From an uncultured Spirochaetota bacterium (GTDB taxonomy: Bacteria; Spirochaetota; Brevinematia; Brevinematales; JAOACQ01): 64,000 nt of DNA. Made by a program: the position numbers and the translations under genes. The DNA is taken from the NCBI GenBank assembly GCA_963835575.1, contig CAWIGG010000002.1, positions 1,981,548-2,045,547 of the forward strand, given 5' to 3'. This document shows positions 42,947 to 63,846 of the stretch, one piece after another. Below the pieces are notes generated by a model that was not told the origin of the DNA, ran no database searches, and worked only from the letters and a program-made list of their open reading frames with translations. Numbering within the stretch: position 1 is the stretch's first letter; every line of letters begins with the position of its first letter.

Positions 42947-44008
42947 ATGCTGGAATTTTTTAAAAAGCAGAAACAACGGATCGAATCTTATATTAAAGGT
43001 TTTATCAAGGGTAAAGAGAAAGATTTTAAACAGGTCAATGAATGGGGAATGGACGCCGCTGAACGGCTGATCGAATTCACGTCCGGCGGTAAAATGCTCC
43101 GTGGAGGCCTGACGCTTCTGACGCATAATCTCTACGGCGGAAAACACCGGAAAGACGCTCTGAAAACAGCCGCCGCGATGGAGCTTTTCCAGTCCGGTTT
43201 TCTCATCCATGACGACATCATGGACAGGGACGCGCTCAGGCGCGGAAAACCCAGCCTGTTTTATCAATATAAAACTGTCGGCGAAAAGGCAAAATTCAAT
43301 GATCCCTGCCATTTCGGCGAGTCGCTCGGCCTCTGCGCCGGGGATATCGCCTTTTTCCTGGCCTTTGAAATTCTATCAGAGCTTGAATGCGGCCCCTCGC
43401 TGGTCAAGGATATCATCAATCTTTATTCCAGGGAAATTTCTTTAGTCGGCATTGCCCAGATGCAGGATATTTATTTCGGGAATATGAAGGAAACGCCGGA
43501 TGAGAAAGAAATACTGAACCTCTATCTCTATAAAACAGGCCGCTACACTTTTTCACTTCCCATGTCTGCCGGCGCTCTTCTCGCCGGCAGAGATAGAAAT
43601 CATCTGAAAAAGCTCGGTAAAATCGGCGAATGCCTCGGCCTGATATTCCAGATCAAGGACGACGAGCTCGGGCTTTTGGGGGATGAAAAAGAGATCGGCA
43701 AGCCGGTCGGCTCCGATATCAAGGAAAATAAAAAGAGCCTGTACCGCTATTATCTCTTTCAGAAAGCGGACACCGGGACCAGGAATAAGCTTTTAAAGCT
43801 TTTCGGTTCAAAGCGGGTGACTGTCCGGGATCTGGATTATATCAGAAACCTGATCGGTAAATATCAGATCCGGGAACTGATCAATGCAAAAACCGGTAAG
43901 CTGTATAAAGAAGCCGAAAGCCTCATCAACTCTTTGAAAGATGCGGATGAAAATTATCTAAAGACTTTGAGGGAGCTGCTGCAATACAGCGTTGAAAGGA
44001 AGAAATAG
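42947..44008 (+). CDS. Polyprenyl (GGPP-type) diphosphate synthase
   Basis: GGKMLR, LIHDDIMD..RRG, KTGRYT, FQIKDD, SDIKENK. Confidence 0.92.
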   Translation: MLEFFKKQKQRIESYIKGFIKGKEKDFKQVNEWGMDAAERLIEFTSGGKMLRGGLTLLTHNLYGGKHRKDALKTAAAMELFQSGFLIHDDIMDRDALRRGKPSLFYQYKTVGEKAKFNDPCHFGESLGLCAGDIAFFLAFEILSELECGPSLVKDIINLYSREISLVGIAQMQDIYFGNMKETPDEKEILNLYLYKTGRYTFSLPMSAGALLAGRDRNHLKKLGKIGECLGLIFQIKDDELGLLGDEKEIGKPVGSDIKENKKSLYRYYLFQKADTGTRNKLLKLFGSKRVTVRDLDYIRNLIGKYQIRELINAKTGKLYKEAESLINSLKDADENYLKTLRELLQYSVERKK

Positions 44009-44276
44009 GTTTGTTCACTTTCTTTTGTCCGGCGGCAACATTGCTGGGGACAGAATCTTTTCTTTTAATGAAATTTAATTGGGGATTTTTATTCCGACTG
44101 GCAATCGGGGGAATTACGATATTTCTTTCTTTTCAAAAAGAAAGAAATATCGCGCTAAAGAAAGAAAACAGGTCGAGACCATTTTCATACGAAGCTGTCT
44201 GATTGGTTGGAGGTGTGTCATCCAGCTTTTTATTAAAGATTCTTTTATTTAATAGCCGCCTTATTACGCCGTCCCT

Positions 44277-46092
44277 GATACCGCTGAAAAATGGCACCTT
44301 TACAAAAACCGATTTCCTTAGATAACTTCAAGATTTAAAAAATTGAACACTTGAAGACACAAAAACAAAAATGACGCCAAATCCAAATAAAAGTAGATGA
44401 TTCTACTTCATAATTCCCTTAATTCATCTCTAAAACTAACTTTTTGACAAATCTCTTTAAATTTAAAGCACAGGCTGCCATGTAATATTGCTGAGAACGG
44501 CCTGATTCTCCTTTATATTTCATCATTCTTAAACCATGAAATCGAACCAGTGCGCTTATCGTCGATTCAACTTGTGCCCGAACTTTCATTTCTTCTTTAA
44601 ATTTATCGGTCTTTTGTTCTTCTCTCCGCTTGCACAAAGTTGTGTATTCTTTTGTGATACATAATTTTCGCCCCCCGCACTTTTTACTTGTTCTTCTGAC
44701 ACATAACCCATAATTTATACAATTTCCGCATGTTTCATGTGAAAGGACACTTGATACGAATTACTTTTCTCACTAAAATTCCAGGAATCATTCGTCTTTC
44801 CTGCCGGACAGACAGCTTTCCGGTTTTGAATATCTATTGAAAATTTATCCAATCTGAATTCTGCCGGAACTTCGTTTGAAGTTTTTTGTATATATCCCAT
44901 CAGTACCTGGTCTTTATCTTCATATTCTTTAATCGCGCTGCTGCTGATATAATTGCTATCCGCAAAGATTTTCTTCGGATTTAATTTTGAATTTTCATTC
45001 CTTCTATCCAATTCCGGTAATATTTTATTGTCATTTTCCTTGTTTGATTGTGGTATCATATCAACTATGAAATTCACCTCGCCTTTGTTTGCTGTTTCAA
45101 CGATATGGCATTTCTCGCCTGACCAGCTTGTTTTTCCTTTCTTTCCTAATTGAATGGTTGTATCCCGCGGGTCAATTACGCTCTGCATCGGCTTTTCTAT
45201 TTCATCCACTTCTATAAACACTTTTTCACCTACTTCTTTTTCTCGAATGATCACATTTTCCTGAAATACGGTTTTCATTATTTTTAGCTGTTTCAAGACT
45301 TCTTCATTTTCTATCTTAGAACCCTCAATCATCCGCGTTATTCGATAGCCATCTTCCACAATCTCCGCCTGCTTGTCCGATCTCTTCCCCTTTGACATCC
45401 CGAATGAACTGAATTTCTTTGAGTAGCGTTCAATCAAATCCGCTGGAATATTTTCTTCATACCACACGGGATTATTTCTTTCTAATACTTCCAGTAATAC
45501 TCGCACAGTTCTGAAGAGTAGTTCTGTCGTTGATATCCGGTTTAAATGTTTTACAATATGAGTCGCGTCAATACGCTGGTGTGAATTACTTTTAATCAAA
45601 CCTTTTTCCCGGCAAAACTCCACCATTTTCTTAAAGGCGTTATTTTCTTCTCCATTATTCCGAAAACGCTTTCTGAAATTACAGAGTGTGCTAGAGTCAA
45701 AAATGAAAACTTTCTCGATCGGCAAATGTAATGCGTATTTCCAATCCAGCCGCAAATACACAGCTTCCGCTGCTTCTGAGTCTGACAGAGAATCAAAATA
45801 TTGCAGAATGGTAACCATTGATAGAAATGCCGGTGATATTCCATTGCGTCCTTTCCTGGAGTATAAATGTTTAAAATCCCCATCATGAAATATGGGATAT
45901 ATTTCCCTGGAAAATATCTTTAATGGGTTTGTTTCTTCAAGTAAATCCGACATCAAATTAGTTACCGAATATAGTTCATCCTGGCTATGTCTTTTTAAAC
46001 TCATTTTATTACCCTGCAATTAATTATGTTAAATATTATGACACATTAATATAATTACAGCAATGTATGTTAATGCATTTTTCAGCGGTATC
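44277..46092 (-). mobile_element. IS1182-family insertion sequence with a frameshifted transposase
   Basis: Perfect 17-bp TIR GATACCGCTGAAAAATG / CATTTTTCAGCGGTATC; no clear target-site duplication. Confidence 0.85.
44419..46019 (-). pseudogene. IS1182-family transposase split by a 1-nt frameshift near 44742
   Basis: LDWKYAL, DSSTLCNFRKR, IDATH, ADSNY; adding one base restores ...HETCGNC...LCKRREEQ...RAQVESTIS; could be a sequencing error. Confidence 0.8.
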
Positions 46093-46669
46093 GTCCGTGC
46101 CCAGCACCACTTTGAGGACAGGCAATCAAAGTGGTGCTGGGCGTCGGTTTTGACATCCGTGTCAAAAGTATGTGCTTCCTCTCTTCTATTATATAGCGGA
46201 TGACACAACTTGATATTGAGATATTTAATCTGCCGATTATGGTTAAGAGGAAAATGGCCTCGGGAACGGATAATTTGTTTAACATCTTTTTTGATTGTTA
46301 TTCATTTCTTTATGATAAAATATTCTTTATAATGACCTTTATTATTGCCGGTTTTATCCGGTATAATAGACATTCCTGTCAGTTAATCTTTTCAATTATT
46401 GCCCGGTAGTCTAATTAATCCTTACAGGTAGTCCCACACCGTTGCACAATGCGCGGCGGTTATTATTAAGTACTTTTTTATATTGATGTAATGATCAAAA
46501 ATTAAAAATCAATTCCGGACTCAGAAGGGGTCGACCACCGGCGGACTGAAATGGAGAAAAAATAATAATAAAAAACAACGGTACCGGGGGAGTGCTATAA
46601 TTTTATCCGCGCGCTCAGGCCGTCCGGTATAAGGCGGAAGACGTTATGAAAATAATTGTTAAAAAAGCA

Positions 46670-46699
46670 TGGATTTTTATTCGGTAAAGGGTGTATAAT
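46670..46699 (+). promoter_or_regulatory. Candidate Pc-like promoter upstream of attI
   Basis: TGGATT-18 bp-TATAAT facing the array. Confidence 0.35.
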
Positions 46700-46715
46700 T
46701 TAGGGAATAAAAGAA

Positions 46716-46812
46716 GTATTTCGCATAAATATCCGCTTTTGGATAATATACGCAATTCGTCTTATACCTAAAAAAGGATGAAATAACGTATTTCGTTTAT
46801 ATAGAGTTGGGC
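46716..46812 (+). other. Putative attI site (R box GTTGGGC at 46806-46812)
   Basis: Cassette 1 starts here (its 5' end is complementary to its 3' end at 47181-47200) with no attC upstream; degenerate direct repeats start at 46716, 46752 and 46788. Confidence 0.65.
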
Positions 46813-47363
46813 GAAAGCGGCCAATGCTGTATAATAAACATTCAAAAATGCCCGGGAAGGACGGATATTTCTCTGCGTAGTTCAGGTTGTAAGAGATAAT
46901 TTAGATATTTGGCTTATAAATTAGTTATAATAGAAATAAAATTATTTTTATGTTGTTTTTTTTACTTGAAAATATTATTTTTTAAGAATTCTTATTTGAA
47001 AAAATAAAGGCTGTTTGATAAAATTATTATGGGCATTTTTGATTATAATGAATAAAGAGAAGGGTTATGGTCGCAGGCATATGTAAGAAAATAAGTGCCG
47101 TTGTCAAGTAATGATATTTATAGAAAGACTGAGAAATTCAGCGAAATAATTGCCTGCGGAAAATCTTATTCATTCAGAGAATTGGCCGCCATCGCCCAAC
47201 AGCGGACAAACGCTGCGGTGCTCGGCGTTGCGACGCCTGCGCTCCTCGGGTTCACCTTTTGTTGGGTAGGACGGAGGAGAAAGACAAAAGGTTCACCACA
47301 TTTGCAAGCCTAAGAGCGGCAAGCCTGGCTCTAAGGCTTGCAAACGTCGTTTGTCCGCCACCG
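46807..47363 (+). other. Cassette 1, ORF-less and structured (557 bp)
   Basis: No credible ORF; internal long-range inverted repeats; TTGGGC-17-TATAAT at the 5' end. Confidence 0.7.
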
Positions 47364-47369
47364 TTGTAC
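47194..47369 (+). repeat. attC 1 (176 bp, class A)
   Basis: R'' GCCCAAC, GCGGACAAACG / CGTTTGTCCGC arms, R' GTTGTAC. Confidence 0.85.
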
Positions 47370-47470
47370 GAAATTTTCCGGGCCGAAGCTGGTTGTAAAA
47401 GGCGCCAGCCGTCCTTGGCTGGCTTAAAACTTATTTTAAATATATTCTTTCAATATATACGGAGGAGAAA

Positions 47471-47878
47471 ATGATTGTTGCAGTTATAGATGGAATGGGC
47501 GGAGGAATGGGAGAGCAGATAGTAACTCAAATCAGGAAAAATATTTCTGAAGAACTGGTTATAATTGCTTTAGGAACTAACGCTATCGCCACAGACCGAA
47601 TGATTAGAGCAAAGGCTTCATGTGGTGCTTCTGGTGAAAATGCTATTAAAGTCAATATAAATAGGGCAGATTTTATTGTTGGCCCTGTTGGTATTGTCCT
47701 TCCAAATTCAATGATGGGTGAGATAACACCTTTAATCGCTGAAACTGTAATGAACGCTCGAGGAAGAAAACTATTAATTCCGCTTTCACAAAATCATATT
47801 GAAATTATGGGTCTTCAAGAAAGACCAATTACCGAATCCATTTCACAGGCGATTAAAATTTTAAAAGACAATATTTGA
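47471..47878 (+). CDS. DUF3842-family protein (cassette 2)
   Basis: IAVIDGMGGGMG-type start, LGTNAIAT, GENAI, NSMMGEITP. Confidence 0.8.
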   Translation: MIVAVIDGMGGGMGEQIVTQIRKNISEELVIIALGTNAIATDRMIRAKASCGASGENAIKVNINRADFIVGPVGIVLPNSMMGEITPLIAETVMNARGRKLLIPLSQNHIEIMGLQERPITESISQAIKILKDNI

Positions 47879-47903
47879 CAAACTCATTATAATTCTTTAA
47901 AAT
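47875..47903 (+). promoter_or_regulatory. Internal sigma70 promoter in cassette 2
   Basis: TTGACA-17 bp-TAAAAT. Confidence 0.7.
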
Positions 47904-47909
47904 ATCTAT

Positions 47910-48063
47910 GTTCAGCTTGAAGCTGTTCCGCAGTAAGAATCTGCTATTCTAACGGCCAGAAGGCCATCAATTGAAGTCATTACAATTCAAGTTATCCGAT
48001 CTAAGCTTTGAAAGCTTTTTCAATGGGGTTGAAACTCCTGAAATAATTTTTAAGGAGTTTTGC
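47910..48063 (+). promoter_or_regulatory. Candidate structured 5' leader (riboswitch-like)
   Basis: Series of hairpins; AAACTCCT (48032-48039) can pair with the RBS AGGAGTTT (48053-48060). Confidence 0.45.
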
Positions 48064-48786
48064 ATGAAACGTCTCTTATTATTTTCAGCGACCTTGTTTA
48101 TTTTCATGGCCGCTTTCAGCACCAGTGTTTATTCCTATTCGTTAAATGCTTACAACGGCATGACAGGTAAAGGAATAATATCTTTAGCACCTATGATGTC
48201 TTTCCCGGTTTCACCTGAATTTGCAAGTTCAATTGATCTTATTGGTTCTTATGGTTTTACTCCAAATTTTGATATGTTTGTGAATATTGCAGATTTCAAT
48301 TTAGCACCAACAGCTGAATATGCCTATTCATGGATTATGCCGAGGTTTGAATTCTTACCAAACAATATTTTAGCTTTACAGTTACAATTGAACAATTCTG
48401 AACCTTTGAGTTACAGCATTACACCTCAATATCATTTGTTTTATGAAAATGACAATTTTGCTTTTGAGTTTAACGCTTCTGCCTTGTTTCCAATTAATGA
48501 CTCACAAACATCTACAAGCATTAGCGGGATTATTGCGCCTGTTTGGAAAGCAATAAAAGGAATTCTTTATCCATTTGTCGAGTTTGATCCTTCCTATGTT
48601 TTTGGCGACACAGGCGGTTTTCATCTGAATGTCATTCCAGGAGTTTGGTTGGGAATACCAGACACTCCACACCAGTTTTGTCTAGCACTTACACTTTCAG
48701 ATATAACATCCGGGGCTTTAGGTTATAGTGTTAATTTCTGGTATTCCGTATCGTTTTCAATGATAACGGATTCAGAAATGAAATAA
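48064..48786 (+). CDS. Secreted, probably outer-membrane beta-barrel protein (cassette 2)
   Basis: Signal peptide MKRLLLFSATLFIFMAAFSTSVYS; aromatic-rich alternating strands; RBS AAGGAG. Confidence 0.6.
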   Translation: MKRLLLFSATLFIFMAAFSTSVYSYSLNAYNGMTGKGIISLAPMMSFPVSPEFASSIDLIGSYGFTPNFDMFVNIADFNLAPTAEYAYSWIMPRFEFLPNNILALQLQLNNSEPLSYSITPQYHLFYENDNFAFEFNASALFPINDSQTSTSISGIIAPVWKAIKGILYPFVEFDPSYVFGDTGGFHLNVIPGVWLGIPDTPHQFCLALTLSDITSGALGYSVNFWYSVSFSMITDSEMK

Positions 48787-48814
48787 AAATATTAAAATTT
48801 AAGGAGGAATTTTT

Positions 48815-49216
48815 ATGGCATGTTTTACGGTACCTGCAGGAGTGGCAATTGTAACGACTATTGTACAAAAAGTTGTTGAAAAGAGAGAGAAGAAAGCCGG
48901 TGTGGAAAAAGCCAATAAAGTTGGCCTGTCTTGGGGGCAGAGATTAGGATGGCTCAATAAAATGCTGTGGGGAGGCTCAATACTTCTGGCTTTTGAACAT
49001 CTTTGGCATGGAGAAATTGTGCCCTGGCCGCCATTCTTAACCGCTATGAAAAATCCAGCTGATATAGCACCTATGCTTCACGAAATAGCCACTGTTGGTA
49101 CGGCCATGGCTGTTACTGTAACTGTTGTTTGGATTGTAATGGTTCTTATTGTTGAACTTAAAATACGAACAACTGGAAGTGTAAAAACAGTATCTATATT
49201 AGAAGGAGGTAAATAA
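48815..49216 (+). CDS. Small membrane protein (MACF...LWGGS...EHLWHGE type; cassette 2)
   Basis: About three hydrophobic segments; RBS AGGAGG. Confidence 0.75.
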   Translation: MACFTVPAGVAIVTTIVQKVVEKREKKAGVEKANKVGLSWGQRLGWLNKMLWGGSILLAFEHLWHGEIVPWPPFLTAMKNPADIAPMLHEIATVGTAMAVTVTVVWIVMVLIVELKIRTTGSVKTVSILEGGK

Positions 49217-49512
49217 TGTGGCTTATTTTGACAGCTCTAGCAGCGATAATCACTACTGTGATTTGGTATGTCAATGCTCCAGAAGATAAATATAAAATTG
49301 GTTTATTGAGTCTCGCTTTTTGGGGAGCAACGATAATGTGGCTTGTTGACCATATTATGGCATATATTACAGAGGGCGGAGAATTTTTTGAAGTGAATCA
49401 GAATGCAACAATGCTTGGTGTCTCAGTGATTATTTTTGCTCTAATGGTATGGTTAATCATTCTATTAATCAAAGACCCTAAAGGAATAATCAAGAGAATG
49501 ATTCAAAGATAG
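49216..49512 (+). CDS. Small membrane protein translationally coupled to the previous gene (cassette 2)
   Basis: Three TM segments; FWGATIMWLVDH parallels LWGGSILLAFEH in its partner; TAATG overlap. Confidence 0.75.
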   Translation: MWLILTALAAIITTVIWYVNAPEDKYKIGLLSLAFWGATIMWLVDHIMAYITEGGEFFEVNQNATMLGVSVIIFALMVWLIILLIKDPKGIIKRMIQR

Positions 49513-49655
49513 AACTTCTACAATCTACCGCTAAAGAAAAAGAATTACTCTATAATTAAGCATTCTTTATTTGTTACCGAAATATTATTATGCTTTAAAA
49601 GCCGTAGCCGTCCTGGCTACGGCTTTTTAGTAAAACATTCGGCCCGGAAAACTTC

Positions 49656-49806
49656 GTACAACAGCGGGTTAGCGTTCCGCTCCGTGCTCGCAAGCTGCGC
49701 GCGGTGCTCAGGCTTCGCCACATTTTGCTTTGTCACGGTTTTTGAGGCGTCAAAAACCGCGCCAACCCTACGGGACGCAAAACGTCGCCAACCCGCACCG
49801 TTAAGC
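49656..49806 (+). repeat. attC 2 (151 bp, class B)
   Basis: R'' GTACAAC ... R' GTTAAGC. Confidence 0.85.
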
Positions 49807-50384
49807 GAAAGCCGGCAGATTTTAATGCGATTAAAGCTTGTTTTAAAATACTCCCTGGATACAACCGAATCCGCACGGCCTTTTGTTTTTAAAAATTTTG
49901 TAATGTTGGGTTGTTTGAATAAAAGCGAAGTTTTATAGTATAAGTCAAAAGCGGATTATAGGAGAATATTTCTTTGATTCCCGGGGTTCTACCGACACTC
50001 TTTTTGATTAATCCTGATGAAATATTCAATTAAGGTTTTAAATCTACAAAAGTTTATTATACCGATATTGATTATTTGTTATTATAAGTGTAATACCGCT
50101 TTTGTTAATTCCGACTTTATTATAAGCTTTCTAATAATCTTAAAGAATCTTGTTATAGAATTCCTTTTTTGTTAAAATATCGTGCGGATTAAATTGGTTT
50201 GTAACAGAATGCCGGCCATCGCTTAACAGCGGCTAAAACGCTGCGGTACTCGCCGTTGCGACGGCTCCGTTCCTCGGGCTCGCCCTGCCGTGGGTAGGAC
50301 GGTGAAGAAGGACGCAGGGCTCACCAAACCGCTTCGCCTACAGCGGAGCTGTACGGCTCAGCGGCTTCGTTTAGCCGCAAAACG
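49801..50384 (+). other. Cassette 3, ORF-less 584-bp unit, copy 1
   Basis: Repeated at 50385-50968 and 52133-52716. Confidence 0.85.
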
Positions 50385-50390
50385 TTAAGC
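50221..50390 (+). repeat. attC 3 (170 bp, class A)
   Basis: R'' GCTTAAC, L'' GCTAAAAC / L' GTTTAGC, R' GTTAAGC. Confidence 0.88.
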
Positions 50391-50968
50391 GAAAGCCGGC
50401 AGATTTAAAAGCGATTAAAGCTTATGCTAAAATACTCCTTGGATACAACCGAATCCGCACGGCCTTTTGTTTTTAAAAATTTTGTAATGTTGGGTTGTTT
50501 GAATAAAAGCGAAGTTTTAAAGTATAAGTCAAAAGCGGGTTATAGGAGAATATTTCTTTGATTTCCGGGGTTCTACCGACACTCTTTTTGATTAATCCTG
50601 ATGAAATATTCAATTAAGGTTTTAAATCTACAAAAGTTTATTATACCGATATTGATTATTTGTTATTATAAGTGTAATACCGCTCCTGTTAATTCCGACT
50701 TTATTATAAGCTTTCTGATAATCTTAAAGAATCTTGTTATAGATTTCCTTTTTTGTTAAAATATCGTGCGGATTAAAATGGTTTGTAACAGAATGCCGGC
50801 CATCGCTTAACAGCGGCTAAAACGCTGCGGTACTCGCCGTTGCGACGGCTCCGTTCCTCGGGTTCGCCCTGCCGTGGGTAGGACGGTGAAGAAGGACGCA
50901 GGGCTCACCAAACCGCTTCGCCTACAGCGGAGCTGTACGGCTCAGCGGCTTCGTTTAGCCGCGAAACG
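50385..50968 (+). other. Cassette 4, ORF-less 584-bp unit, copy 2 (diverged)
   Basis: Same length as copy 1 with scattered substitutions. Confidence 0.85.
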
Positions 50969-50974
50969 TTAAAC
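50805..50974 (+). repeat. attC 4 (170 bp, class A)
   Basis: R'' GCTTAAC ... R' GTTAAAC. Confidence 0.88.
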
Positions 50975-51000
50975 GCAATTTCACCAGCAGGAGTTATGAT

Positions 51001-51897
51001 ATGAATAGAATATTAATACTTTTTATTATTATTATTTTCACAAGTTGTTCTACAAAAATTGTTCGATTTTATCCTGATCAAATATGCAAAGTAACAGCTT
51101 CTTCATCATTCGTAAGAGAAAAACCTAATATAAAGTCCAAAATACTTTTACAATTAAATCATGGAAGCTTGTTAACTGATTTGTTTTTAACTAATATTAT
51201 TTCTAAAATTGAAAATCACCAAAACTATTGGTATAAGATTACTCTTGATGATAGTTCCACTGGTTATATTTTCGGTGGATTTTTAGAACCAGTTCAATTT
51301 AATTCTAATTTTATTAATAATAGAGAGATAATTTTAAAATCAATTATATCAAAATATGATAATGGTTATGAGGCAGCAAAAGCTATTGAAAAATATCAAT
51401 TATCAAACCAATCAGATTTTTTTAATCGAAATAATAATGGGTTAGCTATCAATTTAATTAATGAAAAGAAGCTTTATTATCCAAATAATGATGATGAAAA
51501 AGGAGATCACTATTGTTATTATGATTTTCTTAATGATATAGGCTATTATCTAGTAGAAGATATTTATTATGAAGGTGGTGATTTTTTGTTAATTAATTTT
51601 AGAAATGGATTTTCAAAGAAGATTAATAACATACCATTATTTTCTCCAAATACTAATAGATTTTTAATTGCTTCTTATGGTGTATATTCAATAAATCATA
51701 CTGAAATTTGGAAAATTAACAAAACCAATTTTGAAAAAGAATGTGAATTATTACAAGACTCAAGAGATGATTCTGAAATAAGAGAAGTAAAATGGATTAA
51801 TAATGAAAAGATTATCATTACTAAATTATCGAGTGAAACTAAAAGTCCGATTAACTATACAATTATATTTTCGAATAACAATTGGCTAGTTCTATAA
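51001..51897 (+). CDS. Lipoprotein with an SH3-like domain (cassette 5)
   Basis: Lipobox FTSC; VREKPN, WYKITLDDSSTGYIFGGFL. Confidence 0.75.
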   Translation: MNRILILFIIIIFTSCSTKIVRFYPDQICKVTASSSFVREKPNIKSKILLQLNHGSLLTDLFLTNIISKIENHQNYWYKITLDDSSTGYIFGGFLEPVQFNSNFINNREIILKSIISKYDNGYEAAKAIEKYQLSNQSDFFNRNNNGLAINLINEKKLYYPNNDDEKGDHYCYYDFLNDIGYYLVEDIYYEGGDFLLINFRNGFSKKINNIPLFSPNTNRFLIASYGVYSINHTEIWKINKTNFEKECELLQDSRDDSEIREVKWINNEKIIITKLSSETKSPINYTIIFSNNNWLVL

Positions 51898-51915
51898 AAC
51901 TGCTGGCGAAACTGC

Positions 51916-52138
51916 GTTTAACACGGCATACACGTTCCGCTCCGTGCTCGTAAACTGCGCGCGGTGCTCAGGCTTCGCCACATTTCGCTTTGGCACGGAT
52001 TTTTGCCTGTAATTTCTTTAAAGAGGGAATCTTATGTTCAAAAATGATAGTATTTATAGTAAAGCTTTACAGCAAGATGGCAAAAACACGTGCCAACCCT
52101 GACGGGCCGCGAAACGTCGTGTATGCCTGCCGTTAAGC
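51916..52138 (+). repeat. attC 5 (223 bp, class B with a ~70-bp insert)
   Basis: R'' GTTTAAC ... R' GTTAAGC; AT-rich insert at about 52007-52078. Confidence 0.8.
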
Positions 52139-52716
52139 GAAAGCCGGCAGATTTTAATGCGATTAAAGCTTGTTTTAAAATACTCCCTGGATACAACCGA
52201 ATCCGCACGGCCTTTTGTTTTTAAAAATTTTGTAATGTTGGGTTGTTTGAATAAAAGCGAAGTTTTATAGTATAAGTCAAAAGCGGATTATAGGAGAATA
52301 TTTCTTTGATTCCCGGGGTTCTACCGACACTCTTTTTGATTAATCCTGATGAAATATTCAATTAAGGTTTTAAATCTACAAAAGTTTATTATACCGATAT
52401 TGATTATTTGTTATTATAAGTGTAATACCGCTTTTGTTAATTCCGACTTTATTATAAGCTTTCTAATAATCTTAAAGAATCTTGTTATAGAATTCCTTTT
52501 TTGTTAAAATATCGTGCGGATTAAATTGGTTTGTAACAGAATGCCGGCCATCGCTTAACAGCGGCTAAAACGCTGCGGTACTCGCCGTTGCGACGGCTCC
52601 GTTCCTCGGGCTCGCCCTGCCGTGGGTAGGACGGTGAAGAAGGACGCAGGGCTCACCAAACCGCTTCGCCTACAGCGGAGCTGTACGGCTCAGCGGCTTC
52701 GTTTAGCCGCAAAACG
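52133..52716 (+). other. Cassette 6, ORF-less 584-bp unit, copy 3
   Basis: Appears identical to copy 1 by eye. Confidence 0.85.
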
Positions 52717-52722
52717 TTGTAC
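52553..52722 (+). repeat. attC 6 (170 bp, class A)
   Basis: R'' GCTTAAC ... R' GTTGTAC. Confidence 0.88.
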
Positions 52723-52765
52723 GAAATTGTGGTGCAGCTAATTATTAAATAATAAGGAAATATTA

Positions 52766-53269
52766 ATGAATCTGGTTAAGATTAGACCTCAAAGAACCAC
52801 TGACGCAAAAAGATTTTTTGAAATTCTTAATAATAATAATATGATTTATTTCGGAGTTAGACCTTCTTCTTTTGAAGATGAAAAGGAATTTTTATTATTA
52901 AATTCAAATAAAAGGAAAAATAATTTTGAACATAATTATACTATTTTATATGATAGTATAATTGTTGGTGCAATTAGTATTGTAATAAACCAGCATTTAA
53001 AATACATAGGTGAAATAGGCTATTTTATTGATGAAATATATTGGAATAAGGGTATAGCAACTGAAGCCGTAAAATTGATCGAAAATATTGGATTCAATGA
53101 TTTAAATCTTGAACGTATTGAAATAGTTACGATTCCAGAAAATATTGGAAGTTTAAAGGTAGCAGAAAAATGTAATTATCAAAAGGAAGGATTATTAAGA
53201 AAAAGATTAAATCTATTTGGTAAATATTACAATGCATATCTTTATGCTAAAATAAAAGATGATTTATAA
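52766..53269 (+). CDS. RimJ/RimL-type GNAT acetyltransferase (cassette 7)
   Basis: GEIGYFIDEIYWNKGIATEAV, ENIGSLKVAEK, EGLLR. Confidence 0.88.
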   Translation: MNLVKIRPQRTTDAKRFFEILNNNNMIYFGVRPSSFEDEKEFLLLNSNKRKNNFEHNYTILYDSIIVGAISIVINQHLKYIGEIGYFIDEIYWNKGIATEAVKLIENIGFNDLNLERIEIVTIPENIGSLKVAEKCNYQKEGLLRKRLNLFGKYYNAYLYAKIKDDL

Positions 53270-53287
53270 TATATGCACCACAAATTC

Positions 53288-53467
53288 GTACAACAGCGGC
53301 TCAAACGCTGCGCTCCTCGGCCTCCGCTCAGTCGCTGCGGCCTGCGGTGCTCGGGTTCGCCCTGCCGCAGGTAGGACAGAGAAGAAAAACGCAGGGCTCA
53401 CCAAACCGCTTCGCCTACAGCGGAGCTGTACGGCTCAACGGCTTCGTTTAGCCGCGAAACGTTGTGC
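53288..53467 (+). repeat. attC 7 (180 bp, class A)
   Basis: R'' GTACAAC ... R' GTTGTGC. Confidence 0.87.
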
Positions 53468-54816
53468 GAAAGGCTTGGCAATTTTATAATTGAAATTAGT
53501 TCGGCGTCCTGCCGAACTTTAAGTAATATGAGGAGGAATTTTAAAAATGAAGAGAAGTATCGGAATAATCTTTTTACTTATCATTATCAGTATGCCATTA
53601 CAAATGTCTGGATCTATTTACACAGATTATAATGCTTTCGGTTTAACGGAAGCTTTTCGAAATGATGATACTAATTATGTCATGGGTTATATTCAAAATA
53701 TTGGCCTTTATAGCGTAGATATACAGGGCATGACAAATTCTCTTCTTTGTGAAGCTTCACAATATGATTGTACTAATTCCATTAAAGAAATAATCAAAGC
53801 AAAAGCTAATTTGAATGAGAAAAATATTTGGGGCTATGCACCGATAGATTATACCGTTTTAAGAAATAAAACTGAAAATTTAAAGATTTTAATAGATTAT
53901 AAGGCAGATATAAATATTAAAGATATTTATGGAAATACACCTTTAATGGAAGCAGTTATAGATGGAAATTTGAAAATAATAAAACTTTTGCTTGATTCAG
54001 GAGCTGATGTCAATATAAAAGATAAAGATAATAAAACAGTGTTATATTATGCAAAATCTGATGAAGTTAAGAATCTTCTAAAGAATTATTCAAAATCTAA
54101 AGATACAATAAATTTTTCTAAAAATAATGAAATATTATCAGAGAACAACCCTACAAACAAAATATTAAATCAATTATTCACACAAGTTAAAGAAGCCGAA
54201 GTAAATAATGAGTTAAAAAAAGCGAGTTTTTGTCAAATGTTGTGTATGACATACCCTCTCATTTTTTTATGCTGCCTTTTTTACAAGCTCTCCGTTCTCA
54301 AAAACAGCGCCTTCCAATACAAGGCAAATCTTTTCATAACCTCTTAATTTTCTCCATCGCCTGGATGCCTTATCCAGTAATTTATAGACCATTATTAGAA
54401 TCGTTTCCCTGGTTCCGCAGCCTCTCATCTTTTTAGTTCTTAATCGAACTGTAGAGAAGGTAGATTCTATTACGTTTGTCGTACGGATATGTACCCAATG
54501 TTCCGCCGGACAGTTATAAAATTCGATCATAAGCTCCCAATCCTTTTCTAAACATTCGACAGCTGCTGGATATTTAGGATTAAAAACCGCCTGGAATAAT
54601 TCAAAAGCTTTGATAGCATTATCCTTATCAGGAGTGGAAAATCCGGACGAAACATGCCGGGGTTCCGGGTGAAACATGCCACCCAATCCGTGTGAAACAT
54701 GCCGGGTAATCCGGATGAAATGTTACCACCTACCATAAGAAAAAGCGAATCAAACACGAAGAATTCCTCCGAGAATGTTAAGCTAATCCTTCTTGAAAAA
54801 ATAAGAAGGAGTTGGT

Positions 54817-56373
54817 ATGCCGAACAGGAGGAAGCCTATGAAGAAAATCCGGGAAGTGATCCGGATGATCAAAGAAAACGGCCTGAGCTGCCGTGTGACA
54901 TCAAAGGCCCTGGATATTTCCAGGCCAACCGTGCAAAGATATATATCCAGGTTTGAAAAAAGCGGCCTAACCATCGCGGAAATTTATGAAATGAGCGATT
55001 CTGCTTTAATTGAAATTTTCGAATCGATGGCAGAAGGTGACAGTCAGGAAGAAACCGAAAAGGATAATCTGTACAATGAATTCCCCGAATACAGTAAGGA
55101 ACTACTGCGTACAGGCGTCAATCTGAGATTGCTTTGGGAAGAATACCTGAGAAAATATCCAGGAGGCTATCGCTATTCTCAATTCTGCTATCACTACGGC
55201 ATCTGGAAAGGTTCTCTTGAAATATCCATGCACCAGGAATACAAGGCCGGAGACAAGCTTTTTGTTGATTTTACCGGCGCGAAATTTCCGATTGTAGACC
55301 GTTCCACAGGAGAAGTTATAGAGAAAGAGGTATTCGTAGCCATTCTTGGAGCAAGCCAGTATACATATGTGGAAGCGACGGATAGCCAGAAGAAAGAAGA
55401 CTTAATCAGGGCTATCGAGAACGCGTTGTATTACTTCGGAGGATCACCAAGAGCCATAATACCCGATTGTTTAAAAAGCGCTGTAACGTTGGGCAATAAA
55501 TATGAACCTGCAATTAATTCTGAATTTCAGAATTTTTGCAGACATTATTCTATGTGTCCCCTCCCTGCAAGACCATATAAACCGCGAGATAAAGCACACG
55601 TTGAAAACGCCGTAAAAATCACCTACAGCTGGATATTTGCCGTTCTCAGGAATAGAGTTTTTTATACTCTGGGAGAATTGAATATTGCTATACGGGAACA
55701 ATTGGGAATCTATAATTCAAAGAAGATGCAGAAGCTCAAAGTCAGCAGGCGGGAATTTTTCGAGGAAACAGAACGGAAAGAGTTAAAACCGCTTCCGAAG
55801 GAAAGATACAGTTTTAAAAGCTTCTCAAAAGCTAAGATCCAATTCAACTATCATGTCTGTCTCAAAGAAGATTCTCATTACTACAGCGTTCCATATCGAT
55901 ATAGAGGCAAAATGGCAGATATTGTTACTTCCGATCGGACAGTGGAAATATTTGTTGATAATATCCGCATTGCAGCCTATCCACGGGACCGTAGAAAGCA
56001 AGTTTATACAACCACACATGAACATATGCCGCCCCATCACAGGTGGGTCGGAGACTGGAATCCGGAGAAGTTAACACATTGGGGTAAGTCGCTTGGTCCG
56101 GATGTTGAAGAAATGATAAAGAGAGTCCTGCAAAGCAGGGATTATCCAGAACAGGCATATAAGGTCTGTCTGGGCATCTTAAGCCTGGCCAAAAAACTCG
56201 GAAAAGAAAGGCTCGATAAAGCCTGTAAACGGGCGCTTGATTTTCAGTATTATTCATATCAGGGAATAAAGCGGATTCTGGAGAAAGGCCTGGATAATTT
56301 TGAGGAAGAATCGGTACTGTTTCCGGCCGTTAAGATGCATGAAAATATCCGCGGAAGAGAATATTTTGAATAG
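54817..56373 (+). CDS. istA: IS21 transposase IstA
   Basis: N-terminal HTH, LFVDFTG, IIPDCLKSAV, PRDKAHVE, YYSVPY. Confidence 0.93.
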   Translation: MPNRRKPMKKIREVIRMIKENGLSCRVTSKALDISRPTVQRYISRFEKSGLTIAEIYEMSDSALIEIFESMAEGDSQEETEKDNLYNEFPEYSKELLRTGVNLRLLWEEYLRKYPGGYRYSQFCYHYGIWKGSLEISMHQEYKAGDKLFVDFTGAKFPIVDRSTGEVIEKEVFVAILGASQYTYVEATDSQKKEDLIRAIENALYYFGGSPRAIIPDCLKSAVTLGNKYEPAINSEFQNFCRHYSMCPLPARPYKPRDKAHVENAVKITYSWIFAVLRNRVFYTLGELNIAIREQLGIYNSKKMQKLKVSRREFFEETERKELKPLPKERYSFKSFSKAKIQFNYHVCLKEDSHYYSVPYRYRGKMADIVTSDRTVEIFVDNIRIAAYPRDRRKQVYTTTHEHMPPHHRWVGDWNPEKLTHWGKSLGPDVEEMIKRVLQSRDYPEQAYKVCLGILSLAKKLGKERLDKACKRALDFQYYSYQGIKRILEKGLDNFEEESVLFPAVKMHENIRGREYFE

Positions 56374-56385
56374 GAGGAACTGAAT

Positions 56386-57129
56386 ATGACCAATGAAGCA
56401 ACTATTGAAAAAATGCAGAAGATGAAACTGCATGGGATGTCCAGGGCGTTTGAGGATATCATTGCCGGTAAAACGCCTGACGGCCTGACTGCCGATGAAA
56501 CAATTGCGCATCTTGTGGATTCGGAATGGGACGAAAGGTATAATCGGAAACTGTCATCTTTAATCAAAAGAGGGCGTTTCAGATATCAGGCTGGTCTGGA
56601 GAATCTTTCTTACCGTGCGGATAGAGAACTGGATAAAAATCTGATATTGAGGCTTTCGAATTGTGATTGGATACGAAAGAAAGAAAATATGATTATTACA
56701 GGCGCTACCGGCAGCGGGAAAAGCTATCTTGCATCAGCTTTCGGTAATCAGGCTTGCCGGCAGGGCTACAGGACCCTTTATTTCAACTGTTTGAAGATTT
56801 TTACCCGGTTAAAATTCGCAAAAGCGGAAGGTAGTTACTCAAAAGAAATGAATTTTATCCAGAAGCAGGATTTATTGATACTGGATGATTTTGGTCTTGA
56901 AATTCTTGATACACCCTCAAGATTGTCTCTTCTGGAAATGCTTGAGGACCGGCATGGTAAAAACTCTACTTTGATAACTTCTCAGCTGCCGGTAAAAGAT
57001 TGGTTTGAAAAAATCGGTGATCCTACGATAGCTGACGCAATCTGTGACAGGATAAATCATTCTGCTATTAAAATCGAATTGAAGGGGGTTGATTCTATGC
57101 GTAAAATTTATGCTAAAGATTCTGGATGA
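56386..57129 (+). CDS. istB: IS21 ATP-binding helper IstB
   Basis: Walker A GATGSGKS, Walker B LLILDDFG, ADAICDR. Confidence 0.93.
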   Translation: MTNEATIEKMQKMKLHGMSRAFEDIIAGKTPDGLTADETIAHLVDSEWDERYNRKLSSLIKRGRFRYQAGLENLSYRADRELDKNLILRLSNCDWIRKKENMIITGATGSGKSYLASAFGNQACRQGYRTLYFNCLKIFTRLKFAKAEGSYSKEMNFIQKQDLLILDDFGLEILDTPSRLSLLEMLEDRHGKNSTLITSQLPVKDWFEKIGDPTIADAICDRINHSAIKIELKGVDSMRKIYAKDSG

Positions 57130-58701
57130 AACATGCCACCTGCCTTAAAATGTTTTGGGAATTTTAGTGTTTTGAAAAGTGGTAACATTTCGCCCGGAAC
57201 CCCGGCACATTTCACCGGAATACGCAAGGAGCATTGCATATCTCATGAAGCATCTCTTTTGCCTTTGACTGTAATACTTTGGGCAGCTTGTTTAGAATGT
57301 TCTTTATCTTATGAACCCAGCATCTCTGCCATCTGGATTCAGGATATACTTCTTTGGCTGCTTTCCAGAATCCAAGGCTTCCGTCTCCGATAAAAAGAAT
57401 AGGACCTTTCAAACCTTTTTCTTTTAGGTTTCTTAATATCCCTAACCAAGTCTCGGAATTCTCTCTGTAACCTTCTTCAACAAGAATAATCTCCTTTTCA
57501 CCATTCTCATTGGCTCCGATCATTACAAGAGTGCATAAACGGTCTTCGCTGCCCTGTACATTGAAGTAAATGCCGTCAACCCATATATAGCAATACTTTT
57601 TATCGCTTAAATCGGATGTCCGCCACTCATCATATTCTTTACCCCATCCTTGTTTCATTCTGCTTATACTTGAGGCTGATAATCCTTTCGCTTCTTCACC
57701 AAGCAATCCTCTCAAGGCATTCTCCATATCCATCTCTGAGACTCCATAGAGATACAACAATGGAATGGCTTCCTCAATTCTCAGGCTTTTTCTCATATAC
57801 GGCGGTACTATTAGGCTTTGAAAATTGTCGCCTCCGAGTCGGTTCCTTGTTCTCGGAATACATACATCAATAGCCCCTCCACCAATGAGAATCTGACGGG
57901 CTTTATGATACCCATTTCTTACTATTGCCTTTCTCCCGTCTTCGATAGTTAAATGCTCTCTCTCCTGAAGAAACCCATTAATTTCATCTTCCAGAGCCTT
58001 CTTGATTATTTCCCTGGCCCCGATCCTTGCCAATTCTTCAAGACATAAAAATTCTACTGTTTCATCTTGATTAAAAGCCTGTAAGAGCTTAAAATCTTCG
58101 TTGTGCTTCGGCATATGGCGTATTCCTCCTTTTGTTTATTGTCGTAAATAAATTATAGAGGGTACGCCATCTTTTTTATAATATTTATTCCTATACACAA
58201 CTTTCTATTATAACTCAAAAAAGCATACCCATTATATATAGAAATTGCCAGGATATACTATAAAAATAATGCTTTTACAAATTCTTTAAAATACTATAAA
58301 AAAGGAAATTGGGAAATAGATAAAATTGATTCTTTAATTAATGATTATATTGCTGGAGATATAGATAAATATGAATTCAATGACTCCCTTCCAAAAAAGG
58401 AACCAAAAAAATATTTTGAAGGGTTAAGAGCTTTAAGGAAAGCTGTTGTAGTGATCATTAAAGAAAATGAAGAACAAATAAACATTAGCCTTTCTAAAAA
58501 AGACTCAACACTTGATGAAAGTTTAAATAAAAGATTAAATAACACTCATGACTCAATAATCCAAATATGTACTAAAAATATTGAGGTTTTAAATAAGAAA
58601 GTTACCGTCATTGATACTCTTTTAGATAAATACGCAAGCAAATGACGAACTTTTCAAACGGCATCCGTGCCGTTTTTATACCGACGATTGCCAAGCCCAT
58701 C

Positions 58702-58855
58702 GCACAACAAGGCATAGCTGCTCCGCTCCGTGCTCGCAAGCTGCGCGCGGTGCTCGGCCTGCGGCACATTTGCCTTTGTCACGTTTTTTGAGGCGTCAAA
58801 AAACGCGCCAATCGCTGACGCGACCGGCAAACGTCAGCTATGCCGACCGTTATAT
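58702..58855 (+). repeat. attC 8 (154 bp, class B)
   Basis: R'' GCACAAC ... R' GTTATAT. Confidence 0.85.
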
Positions 58856-58868
58856 GCAATTGCACGAG

Positions 58869-60180
58869 TGTGAAATCAGGACATAGGTAACACTTTCCAG
58901 GTATAATTAGGTCAGATCTCATTAAGGAGGCTGACAATGCCCTGGAAGGAGGTTAATATCATGAAGCTGAAATTAGCTTTTATTGAAAAGTCATTCCAAA
59001 AAGGTGTGAACTTTACCGAGCTTTGTACTGAATATGGGATCAGCACAAAAACCGGTTATAAGTGGAAAGAAAGGTTTTATGAAGAAGGGTTGTCCGGTCT
59101 TCAAGAAAAATCTAGGAAACCGCTTTCAAGCCCTAATCAACTTTCTGAAGAAATAATCTGCGAGATCATCCGTATCAAGCAAACGAAGCAGAATTGGGGA
59201 CCTAAGAAAATCAGGTCGGTTTATGTCAGGAACCACCCGGATAATAAAATTCCTTCATTAAGCACTGTCGAAAGGATATTGAAAAAGGCCGGATTTGTAG
59301 AATTAAGGAAAAGAAGACGACACATACATCCGGAAAGAATACAGAACAGGGTAGCACCGAAAAAACCAAATGATATCTGGACAGTGGATTTCAAAGGCTG
59401 GTGGTATACCTCCGAGCAGGAAAGATGCGAACCACTTACAGTACGTGATGATTATTCCAAATATATTTTATCCATAGCCATACTGCAAAAAGGTGATATT
59501 AGTTCCGTCAAATTTGAATTTGACAGACTCTTCAAGCAATATGGATTACCGAGTATGATAAAATCCGATAATGGGCCGCCGTTTGCCAGTACACAGGGTT
59601 TACTTGGTTTAACCAGACTATCAGCATGGTGGTTGTCTCTGGGCATAAAGCTGGACAGAATTGATCCCGGCTCTCCCTATCAGAACGGAGCACATGAAAG
59701 GATGCACCTGGATATGAAAAAGGAACTGGAAAACAAAATCAGCGGTAGCCTGAAGCTGCACCAGGCAGTATTCAACGAATGGAGAAAAGAGTTCAACGAG
59801 GAAAGACCGCATGAAAGCCTTGGAATGAAAACACCAGCAATGGTCTATATAAAATCGGTTAGGAGTTATGATGGGATAGCCGATTGGGTTGTATATCCCA
59901 AGGGATACATCAGCAGAAAGGTTAATAACAGAGGTTACATTTATTATAAAGGTCGGCGTGTATTTATTACAAATGCGTTGGATGGTTATCATATTGGTTT
60001 AAAAAGTAAAAGCAAAGCTTTTATGGATGTGTGGTTTGAAAATAATCTGATAGGTAGTATGGACTTGAATACTTTTATATTTAGGTCTATACTGAAATAG
60101 TAATTCAAGGGCATTTTGTACTCAAAAAGGGTTACCGATGTCCTGAAGCTAAAGTGTAACCTATGTCTTGAAGTCGGACC
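58869..60180 (+). mobile_element. IS481-family element (right end at 60180 or 60186)
   Basis: Left end TGTGAAATCAGGACATAGGTAACACTTT; right end has two inverted copies (GTTACCGATGTCCTGA, GTGTAACCTATGTCTTGA); no TSD. Confidence 0.8.
58937..60100 (+). CDS. IS481-family transposase
   Basis: MPWKE, GISTKTGYKW, WTVDFKG, SDNGPPF, QNGAHERMH, ERPHESL. Confidence 0.9.
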   Translation: MPWKEVNIMKLKLAFIEKSFQKGVNFTELCTEYGISTKTGYKWKERFYEEGLSGLQEKSRKPLSSPNQLSEEIICEIIRIKQTKQNWGPKKIRSVYVRNHPDNKIPSLSTVERILKKAGFVELRKRRRHIHPERIQNRVAPKKPNDIWTVDFKGWWYTSEQERCEPLTVRDDYSKYILSIAILQKGDISSVKFEFDRLFKQYGLPSMIKSDNGPPFASTQGLLGLTRLSAWWLSLGIKLDRIDPGSPYQNGAHERMHLDMKKELENKISGSLKLHQAVFNEWRKEFNEERPHESLGMKTPAMVYIKSVRSYDGIADWVVYPKGYISRKVNNRGYIYYKGRRVFITNALDGYHIGLKSKSKAFMDVWFENNLIGSMDLNTFIFRSILK

Positions 60181-60243
60181 GGCACAGTCTTTGAAATTAA
60201 AACTGTTTTTCATAAGTTAAAATAATATTAAAAGGAGATTTTC

Positions 60244-60630
60244 TTGATTGCTAATAAAATATTGTATGAAGATATTATTAAAAAGATAATATTTATACCA
60301 CGTAAGTTTCATGAACTAAAAAACATATCGACATTTGATTTACTGAAAGATTCTGGTTATTTTCAAAATTTTAAAAATATTTCTAAAAAAAGTATTTATG
60401 ATGTTCTTAAAATAAACTCAGATTGTCTTAATGAATGGATTCTATATTCTGAAGATAAGCGAACAACATCAGGTTATTATTTTTTAAAAGGTTGGCTTTT
60501 TTATATCGTTGGTTATTATGATCCAACTAAGAAAAATAATTATAAAAAATTATTTATAAACAAAATAAAAGCGTGTGCTGATTTTATTAAAGAAGAAATC
60601 GAAGAAACGAGAATTATATTTAAATTTTAA
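60244..60630 (+). CDS. Hypothetical protein (cassette 9)
   Basis: 128-aa AT-rich ORF, TTG start with RBS AAGGAG, ends just before an R'' box. Confidence 0.7.
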   Translation: MIANKILYEDIIKKIIFIPRKFHELKNISTFDLLKDSGYFQNFKNISKKSIYDVLKINSDCLNEWILYSEDKRTTSGYYFLKGWLFYIVGYYDPTKKNNYKKLFINKIKACADFIKEEIEETRIIFKF

Positions 60631-60673
60631 GTTTGCATTTTCTTATAACAATGTGCCCGTAACGGCGTACAAC

Positions 60674-62395: not shown

Positions 62396-62537
62396 AACAG
62401 CGGCTAAAACGCTGCGGTGCTCGGGTTCGCCTTGCCGGAAGTAGGACGGAGAAGCAAAACGCAAGGCTCACCAAACCCGTTCGCCTACAGCGGAGCTGTA
62501 CGGCTCACGGGCTTCGCATAGCCGCGAAACGTTGTAC
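62392..62537 (+). repeat. attC 9 (146 bp, class A); original R'' GTACAAC displaced to 60667-60673
   Basis: ACTCAAC-AGCG-GCTAAAAC ... GTTGTAC. Confidence 0.85.
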
Positions 62538-62603
62538 GAAAGCCAGGGCGGCGGCTTTATTTGAATGATATATATATGATCAAATTACTAAGGAGGTAAT
62601 AAA

Positions 62604-63530
62604 ATGAGATTAATTTCTTTAGTGATTTTCGCCGTGGTGCAGATTATTTTTATTCCCCTATTTATTATTGGTGGAATTCTATTATCCATCAACCAATTGC
62701 TTGTCAGTAAAAAGTTGGGAGTCTCCGGCACAGCCATTTCCGCAATCGGCGCAAGGTGGGTTTTAAATTTTTATGGAATGAGAAAAGATCCATCAGCTGA
62801 AAAACTATATCGCTCACTTCCGAATGGTTCTGAAATAGGCTTATGGATGCTTTATTTTCCTAGATATCTTCGGTACAAAATATATCCTAAATTAGAAGAG
62901 GAAGGTAAGGAAAGTATCATTAATGTTCCTGTTGCTAGAACATTTTATTTCGATAAACTTATCAATAAATCAAAGAATAAAGTCGAGCAATTTATTGTCA
63001 TGGGCGCAGGTTATGATACCAGATGCTACGGTGATCTCAAAAGTAATAGTTTAAGGTTTTTTGAACTGGATCAAGCAGCGACTCAGAAACTAAAAATAGA
63101 ATGCTTAAAAAGGGCTGGTATTGATGCATCTCATGTTACTTTTGTTGATGTGGATTTTGCTACAGAAAAGTGGTATGAGAAACTTGAAAAAGCGGGTTAT
63201 AATCCAAGTAAAAAATCTATTTTTTTATGGGAAGGAGTAACTATCTATCTTTCTGAAAATGACATTCGAAAGACAATAAAAGAAATACAAGGACATGCTG
63301 CATCAAACAGTATATTATTAGCCGATTTTTATTCAAAAAGGTTGACTGCACTACAAGGTGTAAAATCTACCAATGAAAATTTTGGATTTGGTTTGGATTT
63401 TTCAGTAAACCAAGAAAATGTTTTAAAAACATTCATAGAGAGTGAAAATGTAAGTTTGGGTGATTTCTATTTTATTGGACACAAAACAAAAAAAGGTGCC
63501 TTTGGGGTCGTAGCTGAAATTATTTTATAG
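62604..63530 (+). CDS. SAM-dependent methyltransferase, leucine carboxyl methyltransferase-like (cassette 10)
   Basis: ARTFYFD, MGAGYDTR, FFELDQ, FLWEGVTIYL. Confidence 0.88.
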   Translation: MRLISLVIFAVVQIIFIPLFIIGGILLSINQLLVSKKLGVSGTAISAIGARWVLNFYGMRKDPSAEKLYRSLPNGSEIGLWMLYFPRYLRYKIYPKLEEEGKESIINVPVARTFYFDKLINKSKNKVEQFIVMGAGYDTRCYGDLKSNSLRFFELDQAATQKLKIECLKRAGIDASHVTFVDVDFATEKWYEKLEKAGYNPSKKSIFLWEGVTIYLSENDIRKTIKEIQGHAASNSILLADFYSKRLTALQGVKSTNENFGFGLDFSVNQENVLKTFIESENVSLGDFYFIGHKTKKGAFGVVAEIIL

Positions 63531-63556
63531 ATTTTATTCGATACGCCCTGGCCTTC

Positions 63557-63826: not shown

Positions 63827-63846
63827 GAGATTTTGGAGGCAGGACA

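Follow-up and report, generated by a model that had tools for sequence, protein, structure and literature searches.

Cassettes without a gene are known from several integron systems. Those of the Vibrio superintegrons (Boucher 2006, PMC1382264; Blanco 2024, PMC11014356) are, as far as the available text of these papers goes, typically paralogous within arrays, AT-rich and not pseudogenes, with homologues that are either very close or absent; selfish and regulatory roles have been proposed for them (PMC1382264), so that the choice between selfishness and promoter or RNA functions has already been posed. Open-reading-frame (ORF)-less promoter cassettes of the 'reverse' integrons of Treponema (Tansirichaiya 2019, PMC6557892) likewise consist of a gene-less body and an attC site, and promoter activity of gene-less cassettes has precedent in both genera (PMC6557892, PMC11014356; reviewed in PMC8876359). 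Replicative excision and copy-and-paste duplication have been shown in class 1 integrons (PMC8024014), and sRNA-Xcc1 of Xanthomonas campestris, as cited in PMC6557892 and PMC8876359, is a precedent for an RNA from a gene-less cassette. Here we analyse a 584-bp unit that occurs three times in a 64,000-nt stretch of DNA from an uncultured Spirochaetota bacterium (the window, to whose full length all window positions refer, lying on contig C2 of the assembly). The unit is a cassette of integron type without a gene, and a further example of the already known paralogous gene-less cassettes.

The resemblance to the Treponema cassettes extends to a recombinase that is co-oriented with the array, to one copy in first position and to sigma70-like sites on both strands (PMC6557892). 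Unlike in Treponema, the recombinase lacks the IntI-specific segment and promoter activity is predicted only. From the Vibrio cassettes the present one differs in its attC family (150-220 bp, branched) and its non-canonical recombinase, and from sRNA-Xcc1 in having neither an Rfam match nor a terminator-like site. In their available text, the Treponema paper (PMC6557892) never mentions 'secondary structure' and PMC11014356 does not discuss nested internal stems (the terms 'secondary structure', 'inverted' and 'palindrom' are absent). A literature search, whose coverage left out most subscription papers, found no paper on folded gene-less cassette bodies.

The unit is made up of a 428-bp body without a gene, which runs from GTT to AAC, and a GC-rich attC-like site of about 156 bp, and units are joined at G/TT. 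Copy 1 (49801..50384, plus strand) has its body from the GTT at 49800 to the AAC at 50227, copy 2 (50385..50968, plus) lies in tandem directly behind it and copy 3 (52133..52716, plus) is flanked by SH3-domain and GNAT gene cassettes. An earlier note on this DNA had reported these three starts and the length of 584 bp, and both were verified, as was its statement that copies 1 and 3 are identical (allele v1) and copy 2 substituted (allele v2); of the 16 differences that v2 shows, the body has 14 and the attC-like site 2. The note was also right to call the cassette ORF-less. The longest frame, of 52 codons (50017..50175, plus), is at chance level (p=0.17, 500 shuffles), only marginally exceeds Boucher's 150-bp limit, lacks homologues, Pfam matches and exact copies in databases, and is probably fortuitous.

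BLASTN located the body eight times at full length in the genome, in three arrays on contigs C2 (the window), C6 and C7, and all non-copy matches to it in the genome had E values from 0.12 upwards. No copy departs from v1 or v2, of which there are four each, and each body is accompanied by its allele's own attC bases. All eight begin with TTAAGC, preceded by a G, and have as their last base the G before the next TT, and all eight have the GTTRRRY core and the RYYYAAC inverse core joined at G/TT that are expected of a cassette. That the cassette is mobile as a unit, also next to attI, is seen from its different neighbours across the three arrays and from one v2 copy on C7, which stands in first position directly after the attI-like junction behind a 351-amino-acid tyrosine recombinase. 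It is moreover the commonest start after an attC (6 of 42 starts, the next commonest accounting for 3), and each array contains one mixed-allele tandem pair, with v1 before v2 in the window and v2 before v1 on C6 and C7.

A hidden Markov model built from such attC-like sites gave 57 matches in the genome; of 400 other genomes of the phylum, 2 had a match to the attC and 3 to the end pattern. At the junction of copies 1 and 2 (50221..50390, plus) the predicted bottom-strand fold is a branched hairpin that the R-box pair closes, and the same closure is predicted for copies 1 and 2 and for the circle junction, while the attC of copy 3 folded alone leaves its R box unpaired on this strand (folding energies of -43.1 kcal/mol for the junction versus -38.7 kcal/mol for copy 3). 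No clear pattern of extrahelical bases, as in canonical L boxes, was identified in this branched fold. The 'terminal repeat' of the earlier note is present, its 5' arm (49800..49817, plus; the GTT core and an extension) pairing at 16 of 18 positions with the 3' arm (50210..50227, plus), which ends in the inverse core AAC. It is, though, the outer arm of the recombination site and not specific to this cassette, being found in 8/8 cleanly delimited gene cassettes (26 intervals were examined: these 8, 7 of this cassette, 1 other gene-less cassette and 10 that were mis-delimited or interrupted by insertion sequences), and in the predicted fold of the excised circle it just lengthens the attC hairpin.

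We then considered cassettes together with both flanking attC sites, folded as single-stranded DNA of 650-970 nt at equilibrium. An end-to-end clamp was dominant in each, with a pairing probability of 0.96 for copy 3, 0.78-0.99 for two gene cassettes and 0.97-0.98 for another gene-less cassette, and bottom-strand R-box pairing was 0.00-0.01 at both attC sites around copy 3 as well as in the two gene cassettes and the other gene-less cassette. In the tandem pair the clamp opens (bottom strand 0.00-0.06, top strand 0.17-0.24) and bottom-strand R-box pairing at the junction reaches 0.93-0.98. According to these models the junction attC would fold because the next copy provides the same complementary arm as the circle would. 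As the clamp is no stronger here than in the two gene cassettes, no benefit of the inner stems of the body is visible at equilibrium, and this speaks against the simple idea of a single-stranded DNA scaffold.

On this evidence we favour, at a rough probability of 0.45, a passenger cassette that has been multiplied by copy-and-paste recombination at its own, well-formed attC-like site. The cassette would have moved as an intact unit between and within the three arrays. Where two copies abut, the start of the second is predicted to complete the hairpin of the first copy's attC, as in an excised circle; excision with a replication step would leave the original copy in place while a new copy is re-inserted, and both the v1-v2 and the v2-v1 order could arise from a circle of two cassettes that opens at one or the other site. 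By analogy with the described systems, the AT-rich body with its sigma70-like sites likely fires some transcription, which need not explain the spread. The 'selfish cassette' proposed in the earlier note is the best-fitting of its suggestions, with the spread attributed to the recombination site rather than to the inner stems.

The concentric inverted repeats described in that note lie exactly where it placed them (body positions 69-391, 147-305 and 165-228) and are the only exact ones of at least 9 bp in the body once its ends are trimmed; direct repeats of at least 9 bp are as numerous (3). They are, however, not predicted to form jointly in top-strand RNA, in which the outer repeat pairs with a probability of 0.97-0.99, the middle one with 0.06 in both alleles and the inner one with 0.02 or 0.52. 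Only the 10-bp stem (49868..49877 with 50181..50190; arms given on the plus strand) and the 5-bp helix beside it (49860-49864/50199-50203) are robustly predicted, the former at 0.95-0.99 on both strands, as RNA and DNA and in both alleles. The middle stem (49946..49954 with 50096-50104) is predicted on the bottom strand and in v1 DNA folds (0.78-0.94), and the inner stem (49964..49972 with 50019-50027) is weakly predicted. The v2 change CCGCTCCTG, said to weaken the middle stem, does so only for Watson-Crick pairing on the top strand, whereas in the v2 bottom-strand RNA fold two G-U pairs retain the stem (0.92); it also makes a perfect alternative pairing with AGGAG at body positions 161-165.

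Comparison of folding energies with shuffles, as the earlier note had suggested, gave a z of -5.6 for the whole body as top-strand RNA (0/100 shuffles as good) and of -2.6 as bottom-strand RNA. Without the outer repeat the top-strand value fell from -5.5 to -2.6, and in v2 to -0.4. In these bodies, with 22 nt removed from each end (30 shuffles), bottom-strand RNA gave -0.1 for v1 and -1.5 for v2, and the two DNA strands -0.4 and +0.1 for v1 and 0.0 and +0.4 for v2. Local shuffles concur, with an interior top-strand z of -2.5 for v1; over both kinds of shuffle the v2 interior gives -0.4 to -0.7. Since the terminal repeat is generic to gene cassettes, most of the folding signal is not specific to this body, a caution for any whole-cassette-body z-score, which this repeat inflates. 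In a consensus fold of the two alleles, which are 97% identical, none of 134 pairs is compensatory and 4 are one-sided; the conservation index of 0.904 does not exceed that of random mutants (0.917-0.927), and each of 60 random mutants of v1 with the same substitutions folds better than v2. The body as an inverted duplication of itself was ruled out (p=0.17). The 10-bp inner stem is real, but probably a weak extension of the end-to-end pairing and not a conserved RNA fold.

Several observations weigh against copy-and-paste multiplication of a passenger. C1, C6 and C7 have the same upstream element and are perhaps strain variants in one assembly, in which case there may be fewer copies per cell, and independent insertions would also give both tandem orders. 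The recombinase scores 212 bits against TIGR02249, below the cut-off of 265, in a two-part match with a gap at model positions 180-237; lacking the IntI-specific insertion of canonical integrons, it makes the platform integron-like rather than a canonical integron, and class 1 chemistry is applied to it by analogy. Equilibrium single-strand folds may also differ from kinetics in the cell. Three nested repeats arose in only 3 of 1000 local shuffles of v1 (12-nt window; p=0.003), v2 having two nested repeats (p=0.055). None of the 14 allele differences in the body falls in the 62 outer-stem positions (p about 0.11). In a separate gene-less family of 677 bp (five sequences, 88-98% identical) 1 of 160 stem columns varies versus 97 of 476 others, in a test that is partly circular. 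The rarity in shuffles, the spared outer stems and this invariance hint at selection on the body, of a kind that a mere passenger could do without.

The alternative that the cassette is a mobile promoter under selection, which drives downstream cassettes or antisense transcription up the array, is possible though on the doubtful side, and it is compatible with copy-and-paste spread. The body has 4 sigma70-like sites versus 1.2 ± 1.1 in shuffles, among them a putative TTAACA-16-TATAAT site matching at 11/12 positions (50081..50108, minus), retained in both alleles, and a weaker putative site with an extended -10 TG (9/12; 50150..50178, plus) that faces the downstream cassettes; a match of 11 or more arose in 2/100 shuffles of v1 and 0/100 of v2, and such cassettes often have promoter activity on one strand or the other, to judge from the available text of PMC6557892 and PMC11014356. 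On the other hand, an 11/12 site is also present in 138 of 1063 genome windows of equal length and G+C and in one gene cassette (769 bp), the best site points up the array and away from the downstream genes, and tandem pairs would add little to such a function. That the body is instead a structured non-coding RNA (ncRNA) from the top strand, or a DNA strand with a selected fold, within a self-pairing gene-less class, seems to us rather unlikely. The whole-body z and the v1 interior z against local shuffles speak for it, as do the 10-bp stem that recurs in every fold and that the listed differences of a soil homologue spare, the cassette-encoded sRNA-Xcc1 as cited in PMC6557892 and PMC8876359 and, above all, the sister families on which our estimate mainly rests (of 8 other gene-less bodies that share these ends, 6 fold, and the stems of the 677-bp family are near-invariant). 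Against this stand the v2 interior z, the 0/134 compensatory pairs and the conservation index that does not exceed its null, and also the want of a terminator-like site in the body or of an Rfam match in any cassette of the region (window 44000-64000, with one chance match elsewhere, E=0.17). Moreover, the 677-bp family is non-homologous, with 2 of 175 pairs compensatory, and 2 of the 8 other bodies do not fold. The ncRNA of the earlier note is accordingly not supported for this family, but neither is it refuted, the comparison being limited to two close alleles and a single fragment.

In E. coli, the type I loci ldr/rdl and ibs/sib also hold tandem repeats of some 500 bp that look non-coding and pair over long range, with a paired ribosome-binding site and a convergent antisense promoter. 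A small-peptide cassette of this toxin-antitoxin kind, with a hydrophobic peptide, a sequestered ribosome-binding site and an antisense RNA, would find its counterpart here in an AGGAG followed by a TTG-started 19-codon frame (49960..50033, plus; frame 49974-50033), the AGGAG being predicted to be paired in both alleles and perfectly complemented in v2, and in the antisense promoter-like site, which would transcribe across this frame. We nevertheless regard it as very unlikely, for such a frame occurs in 5% of shuffles (p=0.05) and is probably fortuitous, its peptide has two prolines and acidic residues and differs non-synonymously between the alleles, and the 52-amino-acid frame has no homologue; the putative antisense RNA is unstructured (z +0.84), no terminator was found in the body and, unlike the E. 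coli loci, the unit is bounded by recombination sites. Equally improbable is a decayed protein gene or a set of copies created by assembly error. The body is AT-rich like the adjacent cassette genes, the contig ends overlap (the end of C2 repeats the start of C5) and C1, C6 and C7 share sequence, but similarity to a decayed gene, which the earlier note had named as grounds for refutation, was not found (no Pfam match at cut-off in 8 frames, with one weak match at E=0.044, and no protein homologue of the body), and different neighbours with two fixed alleles are not expected from the mis-assembly of one locus. Least probable of all is that the cassette serves as a template or empty vector for new cassettes. 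Pairing does join both cassette ends, and gene-less families of unrelated sequence have this end signature too; however, no gene cassette in the genome contains any part of the body, and gene cassettes have their own, different terminal repeats. Nothing favours the template for cassette formation that had been proposed.

Homologues of the body proved scarce. Among 8 sequencing runs examined only one (X2) gave a convincing piece, a soil contig with an independent homologous fragment of 150 nt and 5 differences, of which the 3 listed leave the 10-bp stem arm (50181..50190) unchanged; a piece from X6 (35 nt, 5 differences) was disregarded. None of the runs listed as containing it was an RNA data set. 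BLASTN in 100 relatives returned short chance matches only (best E=4.9e-4), plasmids had no match to the body, and a look-up by sequence yielded nothing resembling the cassette. The exact 3'-end pattern was absent from JGI metagenomes (0 loci) and the 5'-end pattern from viral contigs (0 loci), where the inner-stem pattern gave 31 loci, none similar, and a relaxed end pattern 39, none homologous. The terminal-pair pattern matched at least 118 loci in GTDB contigs, none with an AT-rich interior among the matches listed; one of these had GTT/AAC flanks, is GC-rich and looks like chance. Outside the studied genome, a short start pattern searched across the order matched like its reversed control and was uninformative. 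Distant homology between the body and 12 other bodies (24 tests) was in no case significant after correction, the best test being that of L153 (p=0.005), with a weaker result in its sibling L157.

A search of metagenomes with the cassette-end pattern found 44 loci, both ends being present in 13, and 12 of these 13 lack any ORF of at least 80 amino acids. These 12 form five groups by sequence, and in none of the groups is there homology to the present cassette. Of the remaining loci, L159 and L177 are real cassette ends after genes, five represent those groups in partial copies, and the others that were inspected seem due to chance; short bodies were favoured by the search for starts and many loci come from a shared source, so that the result is a hint only. 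When folded, 6 of 8 other gene-less bodies did so on both strands (z of -2.2 to -10.3) and 2 did not, compared with values of +0.4 to -2.3 for 5 gene cassettes. Unrelated gene-less cassettes with this end signature thus include ones that fold more strongly than the present one. The 677-bp family (L161, L162, L170, L181 and L185, with partial L165 and L166) has a multi-branched fold with GC-rich stems and a slight top-strand preference (conservation index 0.92 top versus 0.87 bottom), and is a better candidate for an ncRNA or folded DNA than the cassette studied here. Two 340-bp gene-less cassettes, L175 and L194, contain two direct copies of a double-hairpin motif of about 33 nt (z -8 to -10), and a tandem repeat of a gene-less cassette also occurs at L153, where an insertion cuts the second copy.

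Within the genome, a second gene-less body with the same end signature, unrelated in sequence (46806..47200, plus; cassette 46806-47363, also C2:46587-46191), opens the window's array and also takes first place behind the other recombinase, where C2 begins; it has a 12-bp GC-containing inner inverted repeat. A third gene-less cassette, of 295 bp (C6:423430-423724 and C7:1683-1977), has a perfect 12-bp inner inverted repeat and a bottom-strand z of -5.0. The attI-like junction that heads the window's array (window about 46720-46806) has no recombinase gene upstream and shares short motifs with the attI region of C6 and C7. Array recombinases without the insertion are encoded at C7:4725-5780 (minus), on C6 and C1, and at about C2:46690-47750 (minus). 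Those of C1, C6 and C7 lie behind genes that, judged from their translations, apparently encode a relaxase, replication and helix-turn-helix proteins and a type I methylase, a neighbourhood that suggests a mobile element. An NF040815 search of the genome matched ordinary Xer proteins and was uninformative.

Elsewhere in the array, window 47364-49800 is a 2.4-kb multi-gene cassette with DUF3842 and three unannotated ORFs, and near the start of C2 there are three further occurrences of ends similar to its own. In the SH3-domain cassette the attC (window 51913-52132) is of unusual length, about 220 bp, and AT-rich at its centre; C6 has the same site. Small GC-rich hairpins with CATCC/CGTCC loops lie just within both ends of several gene cassettes (window 47401-47422, 49602-49624, 53500-53518 and 58659-58672; also L235 and L237). 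A DDE transposase gene (60808-62392) and a related end sequence (63560-63665) are located directly at the AAC of attC sites, and the array is further interrupted by transposases of the IS21, Mutator-family and rve types.

Why gene-less cassettes become the most-repeated members of their arrays is a question that was posed for Vibrio (PMC1382264, as far as its available text goes), and the present case offers a concrete test of it, with two natural alleles, a tandem junction that is predicted to be fully paired unlike single copies, and a sister family with near-invariant stems. It is an unlikely, if conceivable, extension that arrays with insertion-less recombinases hold a distinct gene-less class whose functional product is a folded single strand, be it RNA or DNA. 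Such a class would unite unrelated sequences by one end signature and conserved GC-rich long-range stems, with the cassette described here as a weakly folded member. If true, the class would consist of cassette-borne structured RNAs or of selfish mini-elements that modulate how they themselves are excised and copied.

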